Of a stretch of 41,250 nucleotides of DNA, positions 2,856 to 41,197 are shown piece by piece. Position 1 is the first letter of the stretch, and each line of letters starts with the position of its first letter. Location: contig JAJYIA010000002.1 in the NCBI GenBank assembly GCA_021796295.1, positions 1-41,250 of the forward strand. Reading direction: 5' to 3'. The stretch comes from Candidatus Micrarchaeota archaeon. GTDB lineage: Archaea; Micrarchaeota; Micrarchaeia; Micrarchaeales; CABMGC01. A program made the position numbers and the translations under genes. The notes beneath the pieces were generated by a model. It searched no databases, was not told the origin of the DNA, and saw only the letters and a program-made list of their open reading frames with translations.

Positions 2856-4079
2856 TCAGTTCCTGATGTTTACCCTATCTGTTTTTTTCTTTTGGGTTTC
2901 AACGCCGTTGCGCAGAGTATCCTTGACATTCCGCCTTTCAGGAGGGCCTTTAGTTACCGCATTGTTAGGCATACCTTCCGATCCCCTCAATATGGCCTTT
3001 TCCCTTCGTATCCTCTCTGACCCCTGTCGCATATTTTCAAGGCCCCTCTTTAGTATGGCGTTTAACTCACGTCCCTTCGCCTCTCTTGTGGCAGAGCTTA
3101 GTCCCACGTTCAATATATCCTTAAGCAGATATTTCAGGTTGTCTTCCTCCTTGTTTAATGGCAATACAGCCATATTTGCATATGAAAACGCATTCTTTTC
3201 GGCTTTGTTAGATATGGAAGGGTCTGCGCCGTTGATTATAAGGTTCTTCATGACAATCAGGCGTTTTTTAAGGAGGTCTCGCTGGGCCGCTGCATTGCTG
3301 TCTGTGCTCGCAGCAACCTGGGTTGCATATATAACAGCAGTATTGCCTTTTGAGTCCTGCCGGTTTATGCTCTTGATAACGCTCTGATTCTGAAGGAGTA
3401 CGTTAACCACTCCGTACTGTTTGCTTAGTATTTTCTGCATAAGAAGAGATGAACCTGACTTATTTACATGGGCGGGATCTGCGCCGGAAGCAATGAGCTT
3501 CTTGAAATTTTCCAGTCGGTAGGCATTCGGGGTGGAAGCTATGCCCAGGGCATAGGAAAGTGCCGTGTTGCCGCTTGTGTCCTCGTGGTTTATCGTCTTC
3601 GTGATTGAAGGCACGGTGCGCATATAATCAAGGATTTTAGTATTGCCTGAGAATGCAGCCCACATCAAGCCCGTGCCTTTGCCCCGGTCCTCTGCATCTG
3701 TTTTTATGCCTTTGTCTATCACATACTTAAGCAGCGTTATGTCCCTCTCCCTGATTGAATGCTGTACTACGCGTATGAAGAGAGGAAAACTGTGTTCGTC
3801 TTTTGCATTTAGATGTGCCTTCTCTTTAAGCGCCTTTCCAAATTTTATAATGTTATCATTTTCCAGAACATCCAGAAACTCGAGGCTGGACTTAAATCCA
3901 ACACGCTTTCTGATTTCAATATCCCTATCGGTGGCATAGAATAAGGCAAGGTCTGGCGAGCGGGCCAGAAATCCATTGAAGATCTTTTCAGAACTTTCAA
4001 GCTCAGCATTGAAACTTCGTTCTGAGTCCTTTTGAAGGGGCTTGCCGCTGTCAGACCCAAGTGGCTGCGCTGGTTGCAT
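2856..4079 (-). CDS. Ankyrin-repeat protein with a basic C-terminal tail
   Basis: Repeats are recognisable by eye: GKGTGLMWAAFSGNTKILDYM; TSGNTALSYALG...LIASGADPAHVNKSGSSLL; DSKGNTAVIYAT...LIINGADPSISNKAEKNAFSYA. There is no signal peptide. The C-terminal ~60 aa are K/R-rich. Confidence 0.8.
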   Translation of the reverse strand: MQPAQPLGSDSGKPLQKDSERSFNAELESSEKIFNGFLARSPDLALFYATDRDIEIRKRVGFKSSLEFLDVLENDNIIKFGKALKEKAHLNAKDEHSFPLFIRVVQHSIRERDITLLKYVIDKGIKTDAEDRGKGTGLMWAAFSGNTKILDYMRTVPSITKTINHEDTSGNTALSYALGIASTPNAYRLENFKKLIASGADPAHVNKSGSSLLMQKILSKQYGVVNVLLQNQSVIKSINRQDSKGNTAVIYATQVAASTDSNAAAQRDLLKKRLIVMKNLIINGADPSISNKAEKNAFSYANMAVLPLNKEEDNLKYLLKDILNVGLSSATREAKGRELNAILKRGLENMRQGSERIRREKAILRGSEGMPNNAVTKGPPERRNVKDTLRNGVETQKKKTDRVNIRN

Positions 4080-6961: not shown

Positions 6962-7372
6962 TCAGACAAGCACAAAGGCTGTTGTCGTTGAGACGACTCC
7001 GTATGCCTTCCTTATCGCGTCTACGTCTGTATTTATCGATTCGGTGCTCGTAGCCTCGAGGTATGCCACTATGTCAAAAGTACCAGACACCTCATACACA
7101 TTCTTGACTGTTGGGAGAGATGCGATGCGCCTTGACGTGCTTGGAACTATCCTTTTGGCTTTTATGAAGACGAAGGCCTTTACCCTTCCAGAGTCGCCTT
7201 TAATCACGGTGAAGCCTTTTATCGCGCCGCTCTCAAGCATGGCCTTTACCCTTTTCCTGATAGTGCCTTCGGATACTCCAATGTCTTTGGCTATCTGAAG
7301 GAACGGTGTCCTAGAATCAGACTCAAGATGGGAGAGTATCTCTGTATCAATATTATCCATACCCATCCACAT
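6962..7372 (-). CDS. Lrp/AsnC-family transcriptional regulator
   Basis: DNIDTEILSHLESDSRTPFLQIAKDIGVSEGTIRKRVKAMLESGAIKGFTV is the HTH, followed by a RAM domain. The start may be at 7360. It sits upstream of the lysA-dapL pair. Confidence 0.85.
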   Translation of the reverse strand: MWMGMDNIDTEILSHLESDSRTPFLQIAKDIGVSEGTIRKRVKAMLESGAIKGFTVIKGDSGRVKAFVFIKAKRIVPSTSRRIASLPTVKNVYEVSGTFDIVAYLEATSTESINTDVDAIRKAYGVVSTTTAFVLV

Positions 7373-10348: not shown

Positions 10349-10440
10349 GGCGCCGTTGTTCCGGGAAATGCGCTACCTTCTTCTACGGCTTTTTCCGGGC
10401 CTGCCGTAGATCCAGAAGGCGAGTGCTGCTATGAAAATAA

Positions 10441-10589
10441 AATATCATGTATGGATATGAATATAAGGCATGAGGTTGTCTGGCCGACGTAAAATCCTAA
10501 ATCGCAACTGGCCATGCAAAATCGTCTTCTGAGCACCAACTGTTCTTGTCAGTTTTCCCAAGACGGAGCCATTGTAAACTGGCTCTAAC
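10441..10589 (-). repeat. 150-nt structured repeat module 'M', copy A (about 93% identical to 38987-39136)
   Basis: Direct comparison of the reverse complement with 38987-39136 shows about 10-11 differences in 150 nt. Both copies keep the hairpins GAGCCA-N8-TGGCTC and CGTCTT-N31-AAGACG. Confidence 0.8.
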
Positions 10590-10644
10590 AGAACGTCAGA
10601 TGACAGATGTTCAGATTGTGTGGAACTGTGTTCCATGTTGTTCA

Positions 10645-10685
10645 TCTCGATGAAAGCCCGCAGGCTTTAGCCGCGGGTAGTTTAC
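10645..10685 (-). repeat. Short stop-codon-associated hairpin element, copy A (3'-truncated)
   Basis: The minus strand reads ..TTT CAG TAA ACT ACC CGC GGC TAA AGC CTG CGG GCT TTC ATC GAG. It starts on the TAA stop of the 10682-11290 gene. Confidence 0.75.
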
Positions 10686-11290
10686 TGAAACATATCGTCC
10701 TTCACAAGCACGCTGCCCTTTTTGCTGACATCGAAAATGAGCATGCCCGTGTTTTTGGGCATCAGCCTTAGCGACTTCTTAATAGGCATGGGCTTTAAAA
10801 CAGAATATGAGCACCGTACCACGCCGGCATGCGCGGAGATGAGCACGCACTTCCCGTTCAGTCCTTTGTTCCTCTCAAGCTGGTGCAGGAAGGCGCTTAT
10901 CCTTTTCCTCATTGCGCGCAGGCTTTCCCCGCCTTGCGGCGTAAACGCCTTCTTTGACGCTTGTGCTGAGAAGAACTCTGACCTGGGCCTTCCCTGGAAT
11001 ACCCCATAGCTCTGCTCCCTGAGCTCCTTTGTGTATACGACAGTAGCCCTGTGATACCTTGCTATCTCTTTCGTTGTCTCCCTTGCCCTGCAGAGGTCGC
11101 TTGAAAATATTGCGTCTATTTTCTCATTTTTTAGTTTCAGCGCAAGACGCTTCGCCTGCCGGATTCCCTTTGCGCTCAATGTGCCCTGCATCTGGCCCAT
11201 GATGATATTCCTTGCGTTCTCCTCTGTTTCGCCGTGCCTTATTATTATTAGTCGAATGATACCAGCCCATATTGTTGTGCGCCGACTCAT
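10682..11290 (-). CDS. Histidine phosphatase family protein (phosphoglycerate mutase-like)
   Basis: IIIRHGETEEN......G...LS.KG..QA..LA..L......AIFSSDLCRARETT carries the RHG catalytic motif. A later ISAHAGV is also present. Confidence 0.8.
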   Translation of the reverse strand: MSRRTTIWAGIIRLIIIRHGETEENARNIIMGQMQGTLSAKGIRQAKRLALKLKNEKIDAIFSSDLCRARETTKEIARYHRATVVYTKELREQSYGVFQGRPRSEFFSAQASKKAFTPQGGESLRAMRKRISAFLHQLERNKGLNGKCVLISAHAGVVRCSYSVLKPMPIKKSLRLMPKNTGMLIFDVSKKGSVLVKDDMFQ

Positions 11291-13584: not shown

Positions 13585-13699
13585 GGAAAGGCATGTGCCC
13601 TTCCACGGGCTAAAGCCCGTGGCTTCCCCTAAGGGGGACAAATCCTCGCTATGCTCGGATTTAGCTTCTGGCCATTCATCCCTCAGCTGAAGCTGAGGG
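13585..13699. promoter_or_regulatory. Palindrome plus four consecutive hairpins in the glnA / membrane-protein divergent intergenic region
   Basis: GGAAAGGCATGTGCCCTTCC (13585-13604, one mismatch from a perfect palindrome). CCACGGGC-TAAA-GCCCGTGG (13603-13622). TCCCC-TAAG-GGGGA (13625-13638). AAATCC-N11-GGATTT (13640-13662). CCCTCAGC-TGAA-GCTGAGGG (13680-13699). Confidence 0.3.
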
Positions 13700-13766
13700 C
13701 TTTCTGATCTACAAATGTAAAATATTTTCAAACTGGCTGGCGGTTGGCGCCATAGAAAGGTCAAAC

Positions 13767-15553: not shown

Positions 15554-15961
15554 ATGGATTATTATGAGCTGCTTGAGAAGGCTTTTGCCGAGATGCCAAA
15601 GCTTTCTGAGGAGAATGTGGACTTTGTAATACCCGAAGTCGACTCACTTGTGCAGGGCAACAAGACAATTGTAAAGAACATAGAGCAGATAGCGGACAGG
15701 GCGCGCAGGGACAAGAGCGAGATTGCAAGGTACCTCACGAGGGAGCTCGCTGCGCCTGTCAACGTAAACAACCAGGCCCTTGATATAGGCGCCAAGATTT
15801 CACAGGCGTCGCTCAATGCTAAGATAAAGAGGTATTTTGAGGTCTACGTCATATGCAAGGAGTGCCACAAGCCTGACACACAGATAGAGGGGCGAGAGAG
15901 AGGCTATGTAAACATAAAATGTGAGGCATGCGGCGCAAGGTACACCGTAAAGAGCTATTAG
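15554..15961 (+). CDS. Translation initiation factor 2 subunit beta (aIF2-beta)
   Basis: MDYYELLEKAFAEMP....VIPEVDSLVQGNKTIVKNIEQIADRARRDKSEIARYLTRELAAP, followed by a C-terminal zinc ribbon CKECHKPDT...KCEACGA. Confidence 0.9.
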   Translation: MDYYELLEKAFAEMPKLSEENVDFVIPEVDSLVQGNKTIVKNIEQIADRARRDKSEIARYLTRELAAPVNVNNQALDIGAKISQASLNAKIKRYFEVYVICKECHKPDTQIEGRERGYVNIKCEACGARYTVKSY

Positions 15962-16015
15962 TAAACTACCCATGGCTAAAGCCTGCGGGCTTTCTTGTCG
16001 AGAGTTTAAGTGAGG
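15961..16015 (+). repeat. Short stop-codon-associated hairpin element, copy B (full length)
   Basis: (TA)GTAAACTACCCATGGCTAAAGCCTGCGGGCTTTCTTGTCGAGAGTTTAAGTGAGG. It begins at the aIF2-beta stop (TAG TAA). Its terminal GTGAGG lies 2 nt upstream of the aIF1A ATG. The ends TAAACT/AGTTTA are inverted repeats. Confidence 0.8.
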
Positions 16016-16017
16016 AA

Positions 16018-16323
16018 ATGCGTGGAAGACGAAACCAGGAGCCTGTTGTGCGGTCACTTGTTACGCCTAGGAACGGCGAGGTCATAGGTCTTATTGTAGG
16101 GGCCCTTGGCGCCGCGAACTTCAGGATTATATGCTCAGACAAGAAGGAGAGGACTTGCTCCATACCCGGCAGGCTGAAGAGGAGATTTTGGATCAAGGAG
16201 GGCGACCTTGTCGTAGTAAAGCCTTGGATTGTCCAGGGCGATAGCCGCGGGGACATAGTCTGGAGATACAGCATGATGGACAGAGACCTTCTTAGGCAGA
16301 AGGGCTACGAAATCCCCAAATAG
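16018..16323 (+). CDS. Translation initiation factor 1A (aIF1A)
   Basis: MRGRRNQEPVVRSLVTPRNGEVIGLIVGALGAANFRIICSDKKERTCSIPGRLKRRFWIKEGDLVVVKPW....GDIVWRY is the S1-like OB fold of eIF1A. The ATG at 16018 follows the SD-like GTGAGG. Confidence 0.9.
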   Translation: MRGRRNQEPVVRSLVTPRNGEVIGLIVGALGAANFRIICSDKKERTCSIPGRLKRRFWIKEGDLVVVKPWIVQGDSRGDIVWRYSMMDRDLLRQKGYEIPK

Positions 16324-36293: not shown

Positions 36294-36346
36294 TCACCTA
36301 GACTCTCGACAAGGAGGCCCATACGCTTTAGCCGTGGGTAGTTTAC
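36294..36346 (-). repeat. Short stop-codon-associated hairpin element, copy C
   Basis: The minus strand reads ..GTT GTA AAG TAA ACT ACC CAC GGC TAA AGC GTA TGG GCC TCC TTG TCG AGA GTC TAG GTG A. It starts on the TAA stop of the 36343-36939 gene and ends in GGTGA. Confidence 0.8.
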
Positions 36347-36939
36347 TTTACAACTTCTGATGCTATTTCGTAGGCGCGCATGCTGTCCAGCCTGTCTATT
36401 ACAAATATATTATCTGTGTAGCATGAGATCATGCCTATCACGTTTATGTTGTACTCTGCAAAGAGCGATGTTACGAACGCCATTACGCCAGGCACGCTCT
36501 CCACGCTCTCCCCCGAGCGTATTATAATGGCAGAGCAGTTTTCGTGCTTTTTAACTATCTGCCTGTGCTCCTTCAGCGCCCTTGCCTGTTCTGGGCTGAA
36601 AAGGTAGACGAAATAGTCGCCCATTTTTACTTTTGCTAAGTTCTGGGCTACAATCTCCTTGTCCATGACTATGAGCGAAACTCCGTCTATGAGGGTTATG
36701 GAATTGCCCTTCAGTACCGAGAGTGCCTTTGCCTCTATGCCGAACTCTGCCCTCCTCAGCTCCATAGAATATCTGCGCAGTGCGGCCTTTATGGCTGCAT
36801 AGTTTTTTATGCTGAGCGATTTGCCTATTATTCTTGAAAGGGCGCTCAGGTTCACTATGCCGCTTTCCATGGCCTCAAGAATATACGGCTTGTTCTTAAG
36901 ATACATTCTTACAACGTTAGCTATGGCCATTGTAATCAT
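36343..36939 (-). CDS. Putative ACT-domain protein with an N-terminal HTH-like region
   Basis: The C-terminal SAIIIRSGESVESVPGVMAFVTSLFAEYNINVIGMISCYTDNIFVIDRLD looks like an ACT fold. The N-terminal segment is HTH-like. Confidence 0.5.
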   Translation of the reverse strand: MITMAIANVVRMYLKNKPYILEAMESGIVNLSALSRIIGKSLSIKNYAAIKAALRRYSMELRRAEFGIEAKALSVLKGNSITLIDGVSLIVMDKEIVAQNLAKVKMGDYFVYLFSPEQARALKEHRQIVKKHENCSAIIIRSGESVESVPGVMAFVTSLFAEYNINVIGMISCYTDNIFVIDRLDSMRAYEIASEVVK

Positions 36940-38551: not shown

Positions 38552-38624
38552 GGGGAGTTATGCTAGCTTGGTAGGCTTCCACCTTCGGGAGGTGGCGACC
38601 CGCGTTCAAATCGCGGACTCCCCG
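38552..38624 (+). tRNA. tRNA-Pro (anticodon CGG)
   Basis: GGGGAGT-TA-TGCT-AGCTTGGTA-GGCT-T-CCACC-TTCGGGA-GGTGG-CGAC-CCGCG-TTCAAAT-CGCGG-ACTCCCC-G. It starts directly after the peptidase stop. Confidence 0.8.
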
Positions 38625-38737: not shown

Positions 38738-38980
38738 ATGAATGTTACTTTAAGAGGTAGGATACGACAAATTCTTGACAGTATGGTTGAGGAAGGATAC
38801 GCCAATACCAAATCTGAGGCAATAAGACTTGCAATACTTAACTTTGGAGAGGAGCATATCAATGAGGAGATTATGATTAAAGAGAAGCTAGACAAAATAA
38901 ATAAAGAAATAAAAGAAGGGAAACGGAAATTGCTAAGTTCAAGAGAGGCTTTGGGTGTTTATGCAAAATACGCTAAGTAA
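38738..38980 (+). CDS. Ribbon-helix-helix (CopG-like) antitoxin candidate
   Basis: MNVTLRGRIRQILDSMVEEGYANTKSEAIRLAILNF fits the RHH pattern (beta strand, then ..l..lv..G.y.s.SE.iR.A). The tail is coiled-coil. It lies upstream of a RelE-like ORF. Confidence 0.6.
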   Translation: MNVTLRGRIRQILDSMVEEGYANTKSEAIRLAILNFGEEHINEEIMIKEKLDKINKEIKEGKRKLLSSREALGVYAKYAK

Positions 38981-39236
38981 ACTACCGTTAGAGCCAGTTT
39001 ACAATGGCTCCGTCTTGGGAAAACTGGCAACAACAGTTGCCGCTCCGAAGACGATTTTGCATGGCCAGTTGCGATTTAGGATTTTACGTCGGCCATACAA
39101 CCTCATACCCTATATCCATATCCACACAGGATATTTCACCAAGAACATGATGCACTACGAAATATATAATACTAACTACTCGACAATTCCTCCCACCGCT
39201 AAAGCGTGTGGGCTTCCTTGTCGAGAGTTTAGGTGA
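38977..39236 (+). repeat. Composite repeat: short hairpin element (copy D) interrupted after GTAAACTACC by a 204-nt insert containing module 'M' (38987-39136)
   Basis: GTAAACTACC | GTTAGAGCC...(M)...CAATTCCT | CCCACCGCTAAAGCGTGTGGGCTTCCTTGTCGAGAGTTTAGGTGA. Its first TAA is the antitoxin stop. The GTG of its terminal GGTGA is the tracked start of the toxin ORF. Confidence 0.8.
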
Positions 39237-39502
39237 TAAACACGTACGAAGCCGAATACGACCAGGAGTGGTCTGAATATTTTCAGTCTTTGGACGAGAG
39301 TATTAAGCTTAGAATTGCCAAGAAGATTGGAAAAATTCTAAATTATCCTAATAAAAGGCATTTAAGGAAAAGTTTATTTTTTGTTGATGAATTAGGACAG
39401 TATAGGATTATATACATGGTTTTTGAAGAAAGTAAACGAGTAAGGTTCTTTTTTGTCGGCACTCATAAGGAGTATGAGAAATGGTACAAGCAAGCTTTTT
39501 GA
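39233..39502 (+). CDS. RelE/ParE-family toxin candidate
   Basis: ..IKLRIAKKIGKILNYP.....LRKSLFFVDELGQYRIIYMVFEESKRVRFFFVGTHKEYEKWY follows the RelE/ParE pattern (..yRiiY.i.e....v.i..vg.Rke.Y). Confidence 0.6.
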   Translation: MINTYEAEYDQEWSEYFQSLDESIKLRIAKKIGKILNYPNKRHLRKSLFFVDELGQYRIIYMVFEESKRVRFFFVGTHKEYEKWYKQAF

Positions 39503-39612: not shown

Positions 39613-41197
39613 TTAACCCCTAACTCCGCTGATCGTTGGTAATATGTATCTCAAGTTTTTCAATGAGATTGGCAGTTTTCCTTGGTACCTCTGAAGTAAT
39701 CCACTTGTCACCAATCTTCAATTTATGTACCCGTTCAAGATGTAGTAAAACGTCTTTTATCGAATATTTTTTGAGCACCTTCTTATCAACAAGAAGGTTG
39801 TATATCTTATAGTAGAGAAGTATCGCTACAAAGTTGATAAACATCCATCCTTCCAACTGATAATCGTCACGCATGTAAGAACGGTCTGCCTCTAATGTGT
39901 TCTTGAAGGTATCGTACAATTGCTCAATGTTGACTCTTTGTTTTAGGAATGAGTAAACATCTTCTCCACAGTTAGTCTGCAAATCTGTTATTATGGCTAT
40001 TGTGCCCATCCTGTGATTCATCTCATAAAACTGTTCCCTGCTTTTGTCTTGTTCATCTTTACTCTTTTCTTCATCGTTAGCTCTTTGAATTGCATCTTTC
40101 ATTTCTTCTGTCTTGAGTTTTTCATCGAGAAAAAGAAACACCTTTCTTTTGTCCAGACTGTATGAATAATAATGGATTGGCCTTCTTTCGAAAATGAAAT
40201 GGCCACTAAATCTGCGCATATCTCCGCTTCGAACAGTGTCGTAGTTTACGAGTGAACTGTCACGTTTGAGAGGAAGTATGTAATGAAGCCCTTCTTTTTC
40301 AAGGTCGTTGACGTTATTTATTGAGTAGAAGCCTTTATCACCAACCAATACTACATCTTTTATGCCGCTTTCCTTTATACTTCGTGACAATGCCGAGACG
40401 CTGGATATAGAACCTACGATAGTCCTGAAATATGCTGGCATACTTCTTGTTAAGTTGAAGAGATAAAGAAGATTCACTTGCGGTGCATAATCTTTTTTGC
40501 TGTTGTAACCAGTCATCTCCGAAACAACATTTTCTGACAACGAGAAGACATGTGTTAGGTCTACAGCCAGATATTCTCCTCCTGTAACAAAATTTGAGAG
40601 GAATTCTATTATCGTACCTCTTTCCGTACCTAATTCTCTTAGTAATCTTCCAATCAATCTGCCATTCATATCTGCATTAATGGTATCATAAATGAATGAC
40701 GTTGTATTAAGAAAGTCTAGATTTTTTATCGGAGAATTACGTAGTAGCCTAAATGCTGCAAATACAAAAATTTCTCTCCAATCATTCGGGAAATACTTCT
40801 TTATGAGATCTATTATATCCTTGTTCAGATCCATCAGGAACTGCGTTGCACCATACTCTTTCACAGTTATTCCGTTCTTTGTTAAGTTATAGAGAACTAC
40901 TTCGTGTTTTGGCGGCACAAGTCCCTCTGCAGTTATCTTGCCCAAATACTTACCACTAATCTTCCTTGCCCTATGTTTGTCTTTGTCCCATACACTGCTT
41001 ACTTCTCTGAGATAATAATTGTCTCCATGTCTTTCTATTGCAGTTCTCTTCCGCTTACGTGACAGCACCCAACTTGGATATTCCATATTACCAATATTAG
41101 TAATATTAATTTATAATACTTTCTGTCTGTTTTGTAGACGCTAGTAGTAGGTAATTTTACTCACCTATTACCAAAAACTAGCTGAGTTAAGGATTAA
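39613..41197 (-). mobile_element. IS1634-like (IS4 superfamily) insertion sequence, apparently intact
   Basis: Imperfect terminal inverted repeats: TTAACCCCTAACTCCGC (39613-39629) against the reverse complement of GCTGAGTTAAGGATTAA (41181-41197), 14/17 matches. They bracket a 488-aa transposase. The element is AT-richer than the core genes. No target duplication is evident. Confidence 0.55.
39620..41086 (-). CDS. IS1634-like DDE transposase
   Basis: The N-terminus YYLREVSSVWDKDKHRARKISGKYLGKI fits the IS1634-type N-domain pattern. DDE candidates are AVDLTH and VLVGDKGFYS, with R-x3-E-x6-K in RVNIEQLYDTFK. Confidence 0.8.
   Translation of the reverse strand: MEYPSWVLSRKRKRTAIERHGDNYYLREVSSVWDKDKHRARKISGKYLGKITAEGLVPPKHEVVLYNLTKNGITVKEYGATQFLMDLNKDIIDLIKKYFPNDWREIFVFAAFRLLRNSPIKNLDFLNTTSFIYDTINADMNGRLIGRLLRELGTERGTIIEFLSNFVTGGEYLAVDLTHVFSLSENVVSEMTGYNSKKDYAPQVNLLYLFNLTRSMPAYFRTIVGSISSVSALSRSIKESGIKDVVLVGDKGFYSINNVNDLEKEGLHYILPLKRDSSLVNYDTVRSGDMRRFSGHFIFERRPIHYYSYSLDKRKVFLFLDEKLKTEEMKDAIQRANDEEKSKDEQDKSREQFYEMNHRMGTIAIITDLQTNCGEDVYSFLKQRVNIEQLYDTFKNTLEADRSYMRDDYQLEGWMFINFVAILLYYKIYNLLVDKKVLKKYSIKDVLLHLERVHKLKIGDKWITSEVPRKTANLIEKLEIHITNDQRS

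Follow-up and report, generated by a model that had tools for sequence, protein, structure and literature searches.

The window analysed here is a 41,250-nt stretch of DNA from a Candidatus Micrarchaeota archaeon (GenBank assembly GCA_021796295.1, contig JAJYIA010000002.1, positions 1 to 41,250), and its sequence is also present in mine-drainage metagenome runs and, in part, in the NCBI metagenome-assembled genome GCA_027331565.1. The relatives of its aIF2β protein likewise point to a Micrarchaeota host, from acid mine drainage. At four places a short repeat follows the end of a gene, namely the aIF2β gene, a gene for an ACT-domain protein, an 80-aa open reading frame (ORF) and a histidine phosphatase gene. 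We interpret these repeats, copies A to D, as copies of one non-autonomous palindrome-associated transposable element (PATE) that belongs to the IS200/IS605 family and descends from a TnpB-carrying IS1341-type relative, a reading to which we assign a probability of about 85%. It draws on the anatomy of the copies, the homology of their ends to those of TnpB elements, the complementarity of guides and targets, an empty site in a relative and the states of decay; a transposase, a single-stranded mechanism, a route of deletion and a role of selection are proposed below. Coordinates are window positions. The strand listed for each copy is the active (top) strand of the transposon, which is opposite to that of the consensus in an earlier description made from the letters of the window alone (the sequence-only reading); the latter is called the reader's strand.

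Copies of the element in the window

15961 to 16009, minus strand: copy A, a 49-nt terminal-only PATE between the aIF2β gene (stop TAG at 15959-15961) and the aIF1A gene (ATG at 16018)
16010 to 16013, plus strand: target GTGA of copy A (TCAC on the active strand), a native sequence resembling a Shine-Dalgarno (SD) motif, 4 nt 5' of the aIF1A ATG
36298 to 36346, plus strand: copy B, a 49-nt terminal-only PATE, its guide being GAGG and its hairpin a hybrid that contains a C×C mismatch
38977 to 39232, minus strand: copy C, a 256-nt PATE with the left end intact, the core present and the right end mostly gone
39233 to 39236, plus strand: target GTGA of copy C, the GTG being the start codon of a RelE/HigB-like ORF at 39233-39502
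~10447 to 10685, plus strand: copy D, right end and core without the left end, carrying a 150-nt repeat shared with copy C

The sequence-only reading had recorded four copies of a hairpin element in a pattern judged non-random, and our searches bear this out. The 5' half of its consensus matched at 15961-15989(+), 36318-36346(-) and 10657-10685(-), and the 3' half at 15987-16013(+), 36294-36320(-) and 39210-39236(+), all with 0 mismatches to the degenerate pattern; 100 dinucleotide-preserving shuffles gave 0 matches to either half. The boundaries required revision. The terminal GTGA, which had been counted as part of the element, is the insertion target, and the element proper is 49 nt long in A (15961-16009) and B (36298-36346). 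Copy C had been taken for a 55-nt copy interrupted by foreign DNA and is instead a 256-nt member (38977-39232) that carries the family core. Copy D had been called 3'-truncated; it does lack one end, but it consists of an end plus core that runs on the reader's strand from 10685 to ~10447 (-).

On its active strand copy A reads TTAAACTCTCGACAAG-AAAG-(CCCGCaGGC TTTA GCCATGGG)-TAGTTTAC, with the hairpin in parentheses. The left end of copy C (39170-39232) comprises a 20-nt tail, the guide GAAG, a bulged hairpin and an outer stem CTCGACAA/TTGTCGAG, and is joined to a core at 38987-39169. At its right end the final 10 nt, GGTAGTTTAC (38977-38986), are kept and the hairpin and guide are deleted. 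The right end of copy D (10640-10685) is intact, with guide AAAG, hairpin CCCGCaGGC TTTA GCCGCGGG and tail TAGTTTAC. The 150-nt core repeat, at 10440-10589 in D and 38987-39136 in C, occupies the same relative position in both and is 93% identical, with 11 nt differing. Only the terminal 10 nt are common to all four copies, which otherwise keep different parts. The active strand is the minus strand in A and C and the plus strand in B and D (2:2 in 41 kb).

Architecture of the intact element

A metagenome scan recovered an intact copy of 260 nt from another metagenome (L006, 7451-7192). On the reader's strand it consists of GTAAACTA, hairpin 1, ~190 nt, CTCGACAA..., hairpin 2, ...TTGTCGAG and TTTAG, followed by GTGA. 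The two hairpins are in direct orientation, with a common loop, bulge side and 3' context (GGGCTTYC), and the element has no terminal inverted repeats. In L006, C and D alike, the hairpins have a TTTA loop, a bulge in the 5' arm and a like 3' context, all on one strand. Written on the active strand, with ^ for the cut or insertion point here and below, the left part of the intact element is 5'-TCAC^ CTAAACTCTCGACAAG-GAAG-(CCCACaCGC TTTA GCGGTGGG)-AGGAATTGTCGAG, followed by the ~150-nt core, and the right part is AAAG-(CCCNCaNNN TTTA NNNGNGGG)-TAGTTTAC^T-3'. A bulged imperfect palindrome follows the left cleavage site at a distance of 20 nt, and a similar palindrome precedes the right cut by 8 nt. 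IS200/IS605 elements, which are mobile as single-stranded DNA, are recognised by such bulged subterminal hairpins, directly repeated and unaccompanied by inverted repeats.

The hairpins covary, a check that the sequence-only reading had proposed. Across 10 distinct ends 92.5% of the cells are paired, and four of the eight pairs have changed on both sides. This pairing score was reached by 0/500 shuffles, and sliding the partner columns lowered pairing to 35-66%. The intact left end of copy C folds at -16 kcal/mol (z = -5.0 against shuffles) and the intact right end of copy D at -10.8 kcal/mol (z = -3.2).

With a size range of 49-260 nt, the family is too short to hold a transposase gene. The elements create spurious ORFs of 66 and 93 aa, the former at 10445-10645 inside copy D. 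We considered whether the core could be a true protein gene and discarded the idea: the 11 nucleotide differences between C and D change six amino acids in their ORFs, non-conservatively, and a composite of the two ORFs found no relatives of a core protein among 5.8 billion proteins. Contigs of two other assemblies (a Micrarchaeota metagenome-assembled genome (MAG) and another metagenome) end within the element, and in run X1 the summed contig depth is ~260 over the left-end (second) hairpin and ~17 for the flanks. The broken contigs and the excess depth indicate that the family is multi-copy. Rfam, run on the whole window at gathering thresholds and on copy C at E-value thresholds, returned only a tRNA and a chance snoRNA match.

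Guide sequences and proposed mechanism

In IS608, cleavage occurs 3' of TTAC, 19 nt 5' of the left palindrome, and after TCAA, 10 nt 3' of the right one; the guides AAAG and GAAT, 5' of the foot of each palindrome, recognise the sites TTAC and TCAA, respectively, with A+16 pairing with T-3 and A+17 with T-4 (PMC3201880, PMC5934647). We derived from this a guide rule, [complement of site base 2, complement of site base 1, any, complement of site base 4], which fits both IS608 ends. Applied to the active strand of the Micrarchaeota element, the rule predicts GA.G for TCAC, where GAAG is observed, and AA.G for TTAC, where AAAG is observed, so that guides and sites would pair at both ends. TCAC stands at the left flank of nine end sequences, comprising four complete copies and five contig ends (2 distinct sequences).

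Other placements were tried and rejected. An IS200/IS605 element on the reader's strand would have the guide CTAC, for which the target AG.G is predicted, and left flanks that vary (TTAG, AAAG, TAAG, TCAG, GAAG). An IS607-type serine-recombinase model with an AG/GG crossover dinucleotide was dropped as hairpin geometry, guide rule and TnpB-end homology fitted the IS608 type. Integron attC sites were ruled out because the flanking genes are housekeeping genes rather than cassettes. A TnpB gene next to copy B was also sought; the 405-aa ORF there encodes an Nre protein, and the remaining long ORFs of that region belong to housekeeping genes.

If the element moves as IS608 does, both of its hairpins would be bound, on single-stranded DNA, by a TnpA (a Y1 HUH transposase) acting in trans, and each 4-nt guide, lying 5' of its hairpin, would base-pair to a cleavage site, GAAG to TCAC and AAAG to TTAC. 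A single-stranded circle would then be released and inserted 3' of TCAC, by preference at TCAC^T, and the target would not be duplicated.

Insertion sites and stop codons

The sequence-only reading had stated that the TAA of the element is the stop codon of the upstream gene, and this is the case in B, C and D. The GTAAAC of the element starts on the last base of the final sense codon, giving AAG TAA in B and C and CAG TAA in D. The source of the stop is GTAA at 36346-36343 for the ACT-domain gene (36343-36939(-); target GTGA at 36297-36294) and GTAA at 10685-10682 for the histidine phosphatase gene (10682-11290(-)). Copy A differs in that the true stop is the TAG at 15959-15961 and the TAA is next in frame. 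In L006, an independent copy, the TAA of the element is the stop of an AsnC-type regulator gene.

The junction of aIF2β and aIF1A could be compared among relatives. All aIF2β orthologues end in ...YT(V/I)K(S/N)Y, two of them with an extra Q, and the window protein ends in ...YTVKSY; with its native C-terminus kept, the insertion of copy A took away no coding sequence. The junction is occupied in a close strain (L008; aIF2β 99% identical, flanks 97.9%). It is empty in a relative with 84% protein identity (L007), which reads TAT TGA ...GTGAGAGA ATG, and in one with 73% (L009), which reads TAC TAG TGA ATAC ATG, that is, TA^GTGA. Removal of 15961-16009 from the window leaves TAT TAG TGA GGAA ATG, the layout of L009, and this match indicates that GTGA is the target and the native SD-like sequence of aIF1A. 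Compared with the empty site, the occupied one shows no target duplication beyond an ambiguity of 1-2 nt. The same removal would give GTA AAG TGA for B, GCT AAG TGA TAA for C and GTG AAG TGA for L006. These reconstructions support the view, raised in the sequence-only reading, that native stops have been replaced. No joint skipping the element was found at sites A, B or C in the contigs of three runs from the source population.

An A^GTGA target combined with an element end GTAA (TTAC on the active strand) converts xxG TGA into xxG TAA and leaves the protein unchanged. Because the target is asymmetric, the element shares the orientation of the upstream gene, and no separate explanation is needed. 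The GTGA, often the SD sequence or GTG start of the next gene, would stay attached to the downstream gene. Insertions at the far commoner intragenic GTGA sites would presumably be lost to selection, leaving survivors on stop codons in the orientation of the upstream gene.

In a rough gene set of the window the stops are 27 TGA, 15 TAA and 13 TAG. A^GTGA occurs at 37 intragenic sites, at eight non-coding sites that are empty and at the four occupied ones. All four of the latter overlap a stop codon (three xAG-TGA, one TAG^TGA), and every xAG-TGA stop in the window carries a copy; in the other two xxG-TGA stops the G follows C or T instead of A. A Fisher test by hand of 4/4 against 0/8 gives ~0.002, on small numbers. 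Several of the empty non-coding sites lie in probable promoter or leader regions, where insertion could harm.

In L006 the opposite end of the element meets a gene as well. At 7188-7195 (+) the TAA that closes a convergent NDK gene comes from the beginning of the left end (TCAC^CTAA); in the absence of the element this gene would be 7 codons longer and reach into the 3' end of the AsnC-type regulator gene. Both convergent genes now stop on TAAs from the two ends of the element. A 27-nt right-end fragment at 3387-3413 of another contig (L002) is intergenic; the closest ORF ends 50 nt before it, and the base in front of it is T, not A. As the only copy out of stop-codon register, it shows that the stop-codon rule is not absolute.

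Near copy C, the 80-aa ORF, which has no Pfam match, and the RelE/HigB-like ORF, whose Pfam matches are weak and below cut-off, resemble a toxin-antitoxin pair (38738-39502). The 256 nt of copy C split the putative GTGA start/stop overlap of these two ORFs, and the toxin-like gene starts at the element boundary.

Homology to the ends of TnpB-carrying elements

Viral contigs were scanned with the 5'-end pattern of the reader's strand (21 specified bases). One virus matched, in two samples (L014). The match lies 38 nt past the stop of a gene for a 365-aa TnpB (Pfam Cas12f1-like_TNB at 2e-20, OrfB_IS605), on the strand that the model predicts. Its distance from the tnpB stop and its strand identify it as the right end of the viral TnpB element. 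A left-end hairpin was not found upstream of this tnpB gene, and scanning the viral contigs with the left-end motif gave 0 matches, then two chance matches in GC-rich DNA (L015, L016).

TnpB homologues numbered 3626 at E <1e-10, with source labels that include Chitinophagaceae, Paludibacter and Nanoarchaeota. Two of these loci, labelled Chitinophagaceae (L022) and Nanoarchaeota (L025), have left ends of the form TCAT^...CGGCAAGG-AAA/ATA-hairpin-AGGAATTGCCG that can be aligned with that of the Micrarchaeota element. L022 also has a right end (AAAG-hairpin-TAGTTTAC^) matching the Micrarchaeota one; the alignment of the L025 right end is less clear and was not relied on. The right end was thus matched in L014 and L022 and the left end in L022 and L025, and all three flank tnpB genes. 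The outer stem covaries (CGGCAA/TTGCCG against CGACAA/TTGTCG), and so do guide and target, GAAA or GATA occurring with TCAT and GAAG with TCAC. The homology to TnpB ends, together with this covariation, provides the strongest evidence for family membership and for the target assignment.

A stem-loop with the loop (N)TGTAAAC is found in the window at 38995-39016 and 10559-10580, in L006 at ~7290-7311 and near the 3' ends of the tnpB genes of L014, L022 and L025. Its stem is GAGCCA/TGGCTC, GAGGTT/GACCTC, GGGGCG/CGCCCC, GGGCGA/TCGCCT or GGGCTG/CAGCCT; the lineages differ and pairing is always kept. These pairs were read directly from the sequences, as the gap placement of MAFFT was inconsistent with the structure. 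In tnpB genes the stem-loop coincides with codons for WG..VN.P; the PATEs retain it although it codes for nothing there, and it looks as expected for a remnant of an ωRNA scaffold.

The TnpB proteins of L014, L022 and L025 (P0121, P0233, P0221) are 67-81% identical to one another. Their hosts are a phage-like contig and MAGs source-labelled Chitinophagaceae, Paludibacter and Nanoarchaeota, which suggests that one TnpB lineage may have spread recently across bacteria, a virus and DPANN archaea.

The 49-nt single-hairpin forms

Viewed on the reader's strand, A and B each consist of the 5' flank of hairpin 1, one hairpin and the 3' flank of hairpin 2. The palindromes near the loop read CGC...GCG at left ends and GGC...GCC at right ends. 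The hairpins of B and L008 combine CGC or CGT with GCC, which produces a C×C mismatch, and the three solo copies account for four of the six unpaired cells of the hairpin alignment. The hairpin that had been described for A and B is in fact a degraded hybrid. Single-strand folds are no better than those of shuffled sequences (A, z = -0.8; B, z = +0.8), against -5.0 and -3.2 for the intact ends. A and B are terminal-only relics of core deletion, which would have taken place between the two directly repeated palindromes and left one hybrid hairpin. A parallel exists in Haloquadratum, where PATEs and an IS1341-type transposon shrink to 52-bp terminal-only forms through repeat-mediated core deletion; whether these 52-bp forms still move is a question raised there (PMC3119063).

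The solo copy of the close strain L008 differs from A at ~7 of 49 positions. The difference is a mosaic, with identical right-end halves and different left-end halves, and would fit gene conversion, re-insertion or a single full-length ancestor with two different points of crossover. None of these routes accounts neatly for two of the differences, which fall within the first three left-end bases.

The L008 contig (ENA ERZ27233573 k141_1788772) ends, at 1866-1980, in an inverted 3' end of aIF2β plus half an element. At the equivalent of window ~17036 this inverted part passes into unrelated sequence, the two sharing hardly any bases at the joint. The structure resembles a fold-back chimera for which the element hairpin served as primer, or else a real inverted duplication.

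One more hairpin lies in the window:

13603 to 13622, minus strand: perfect hairpin CCACGGGC TTTA GCCCGTGG, preceded by GAAG on that strand, without bulge, 20-nt tail or TCAC

It may be a decayed left-end hairpin with its guide, or unrelated sequence. It is one of two palindromes in 13603-13700, between co-directional (-) genes; the second is an unrelated 20-nt CCCTCAGCTGAAGCTGAGGG at 13680-13699.

Alternative explanations

The sequence-only reading had offered a miniature inverted-repeat transposable element (MITE) as its first option. Such an element, mobilised by a DDE transposase of the IS630/Tc1 type or by the IS4-like one in the window, would have TAAACT...AGTTTA as its repeats and TA as duplicated target. 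These ends are present in A and C, a DDE transposase gene lies 400 nt from copy C, and in-frame TAG stops would likewise return in B and C if AACT...AGTT were excised with one TA. The 6-nt repeat is nevertheless imperfect in B and L008, absent from L001-3 (...GAGAGAAGGTGA) and L004/5, and internal to a conserved block that reaches 5 nt past it (RGTGA). There is no consistent TA at the right junction, L001-3 reading ...GAGAGAAG^GTGA. The intact copy carries one bulged hairpin as a direct repeat at its two ends, both of which are homologous to the ends of IS200/IS605 TnpB elements. The transposase gene at 39620-41086, which had been assumed to be of IS630 type, matches Pfam DDE_Tnp_1 (IS4-like) and no IS630-type family. 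What survives of this option is the idea of a target-specific mobile element that persists where stop and SD sequence stay intact; the family was wrong, and as an inverted-repeat MITE the element is highly improbable.

Its second option, an intercistronic RNA module selected by the host, would have the repeat supply a stop, a hairpin for processing or protein binding and an SD sequence, for translational coupling or mRNA stabilisation, with a transposon origin incidental or the element co-opted. That all copies are sense-oriented downstream of a gene accords with this, as do the covarying hairpin, the emptiness of the eight other non-coding A^GTGA sites and the G or AG that most copies add 5' of GTGA, which lengthens the anti-SD match (AGGTGA in B, C and L006). 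The covariation, though, is equally expected of a DNA hairpin read by TnpA. The module is absent from the same junction in the 84% and 73% relatives, which have their own GTGA SD sequence; the window copies are variously damaged; D and L006 lie between convergent genes with no downstream gene to couple; and the poor folds of A and B, with mismatches, are as expected of hybrid arms. We therefore regard a host-selected module as quite unlikely. A terminator or 3'-end element, the third option, is not supported either, given the lack of a T-run after the hairpin, the same empty junctions and the same folds. A further alternative is that the 49-nt form is no dead relic but a minimal transposon that remains active and inserts at A^GTGA stop sites. 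At least five further solo-type copies occur in run X1 contigs, L008 carries a different solo at the same site, every xAG-TGA-type stop in the window is occupied, and the same possibility is raised for the 52-bp Haloquadratum forms in PMC3119063. In IS608, the TnpA dimer requires a pair of hairpins, and the single guide of a solo would have to serve two different cleavage sites (PMC3201880). Moreover, the solo hairpins are mismatched and fold poorly, and the mostly mosaic L008 difference would also be given by two crossover points in one full-length ancestor or by gene conversion. On balance, continued mobility of the solo form seems doubtful.

Several points weigh against the assignment to an IS200/IS605 PATE. 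The window and the reachable Micrarchaeota loci yielded no TnpA (Y1) or TnpB gene with these ends, and a trans-acting transposase is assumed. Look-ups with window proteins for sequence beyond the window gave just this region again or short contigs. The sample is small, with five independent complete insertion sites, and the mixed 2:2 orientation gives no sign of an IS608-type lagging-strand bias. A single empty site was recovered, in a relative at 73% protein identity, and it leaves the cut position ambiguous by 1-2 nt. The divergence of L008 from A would not be predicted by simple vertical inheritance of a dead relic. Finally, survivorship alone does not obviously explain why 4/4 occupied sites overlap a stop when 0/8 other non-coding sites are occupied.

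Comparison with known systems

IS200/IS605 elements occur in >65% of Micrarchaeota genomes (PMC13343696). The present element is a new member of the PATE class; no PATE described in Micrarchaeota was found in the literature searched. It most resembles in its features the PATEs of Haloquadratum walsbyi (PMC3119063). Common to both are the absence of a transposase gene, of terminal inverted repeats and of target duplication, similar near-terminal palindromes that lie farther from the end on the 5' side, a terminal oligonucleotide that is short and conserved, a targeting sequence of 4-5 nt, ends that match IS1341-type (TnpB) transposons and a core deletion that leaves an element of ~50 bp. The Haloquadratum study also describes remnants of TnpB C-terminal coding sequence inside a PATE; none could be recognised in the Micrarchaeota core. 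The hosts differ (Halobacteria against Micrarchaeota, a DPANN lineage), and so does the sequence family. The TCAC/TTAC pair, its stop-preserving effect and the exclusive placement on stops belong to the Micrarchaeota element and were not met in the passages of that study that were consulted.

With IS608 of Helicobacter pylori (PMC3201880, PMC5934647) the element shares asymmetric ends (left 19-20 nt, right 8-10 nt), bulged imperfect palindromes, 4-nt guides under the same pairing rule, AAAG/TTAC being identical to the IS608 left end, and a preference at the base after the cut. Unlike IS608, it has neither tnpA nor tnpB, its target is TCAC and not TTAC, the latter serving as right-end motif, and an extra outer stem CTCGACAA/TTGTCGAG surrounds its left palindrome. 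Elements of the IS200/IS605 family that carry only tnpB have an overlapping ωRNA, and PATE-like elements often encode ωRNAs (Meers et al., PMC10055086). The likeness to these lies in a right end just past the tnpB stop (L014, L022) and in a core TGTAAAC stem-loop whose stem covaries between the PATEs and the 3' ends of three tnpB genes and would correspond to a scaffold remnant. The 49-nt forms differ in lacking the TGTAAAC region wholly, and Rfam gave no match.

Other features of the window

The DDE_Tnp_1 transposase (39620-41086 (-)) is 488 aa long, and an identical protein is encoded on a 2.1-kb contig of another sample (L010). ARAGORN placed a tRNA-Pro(CGG) at 38552-38624, and the Rfam gathering-threshold scan gave only a tRNA-Arg at 2103-2177. 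Contig depth over the tRNA-Pro(CGG) was very high in all three runs, as expected of a conserved gene.

Implications

What appeared to be an RNA module at stop codons becomes a checkable case of a single-strand (IS200/IS605-type) transposon in a DPANN archaeon with a tiny, gene-dense genome. In practical terms, relics of 49-260 nt break assemblies, create spurious ORFs and shift stop usage from TGA to TAA. The co-occurrence of GAAG with TCAC and of GAAA or GATA with TCAT lends support from natural variation to the IS608 re-targeting rule.

The target and end motifs of a transposon can be the reverse complements of two stop codons, and insertion at a gene end is then silent for both neighbours. 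We advance, tentatively and as a minority view, that TCAC/TTAC (GTGA/GTAA on the coding strand) is a matched pair for colonising TGA stops with the neighbours unchanged, gene ends being a preferred niche and not merely the site of survival. Linked to this, the 49-nt single-hairpin form may still be mobile, given the different solo at the same site in a strain with flanks 97.9% identical. Any wider interest would lie only in the stop-preserving pair of target and end and in the apparently exclusive use of gene ends. If true genome-wide, the pairing would explain a high density of elements in streamlined genomes and would offer a simple rule for predicting safe insertion sites.

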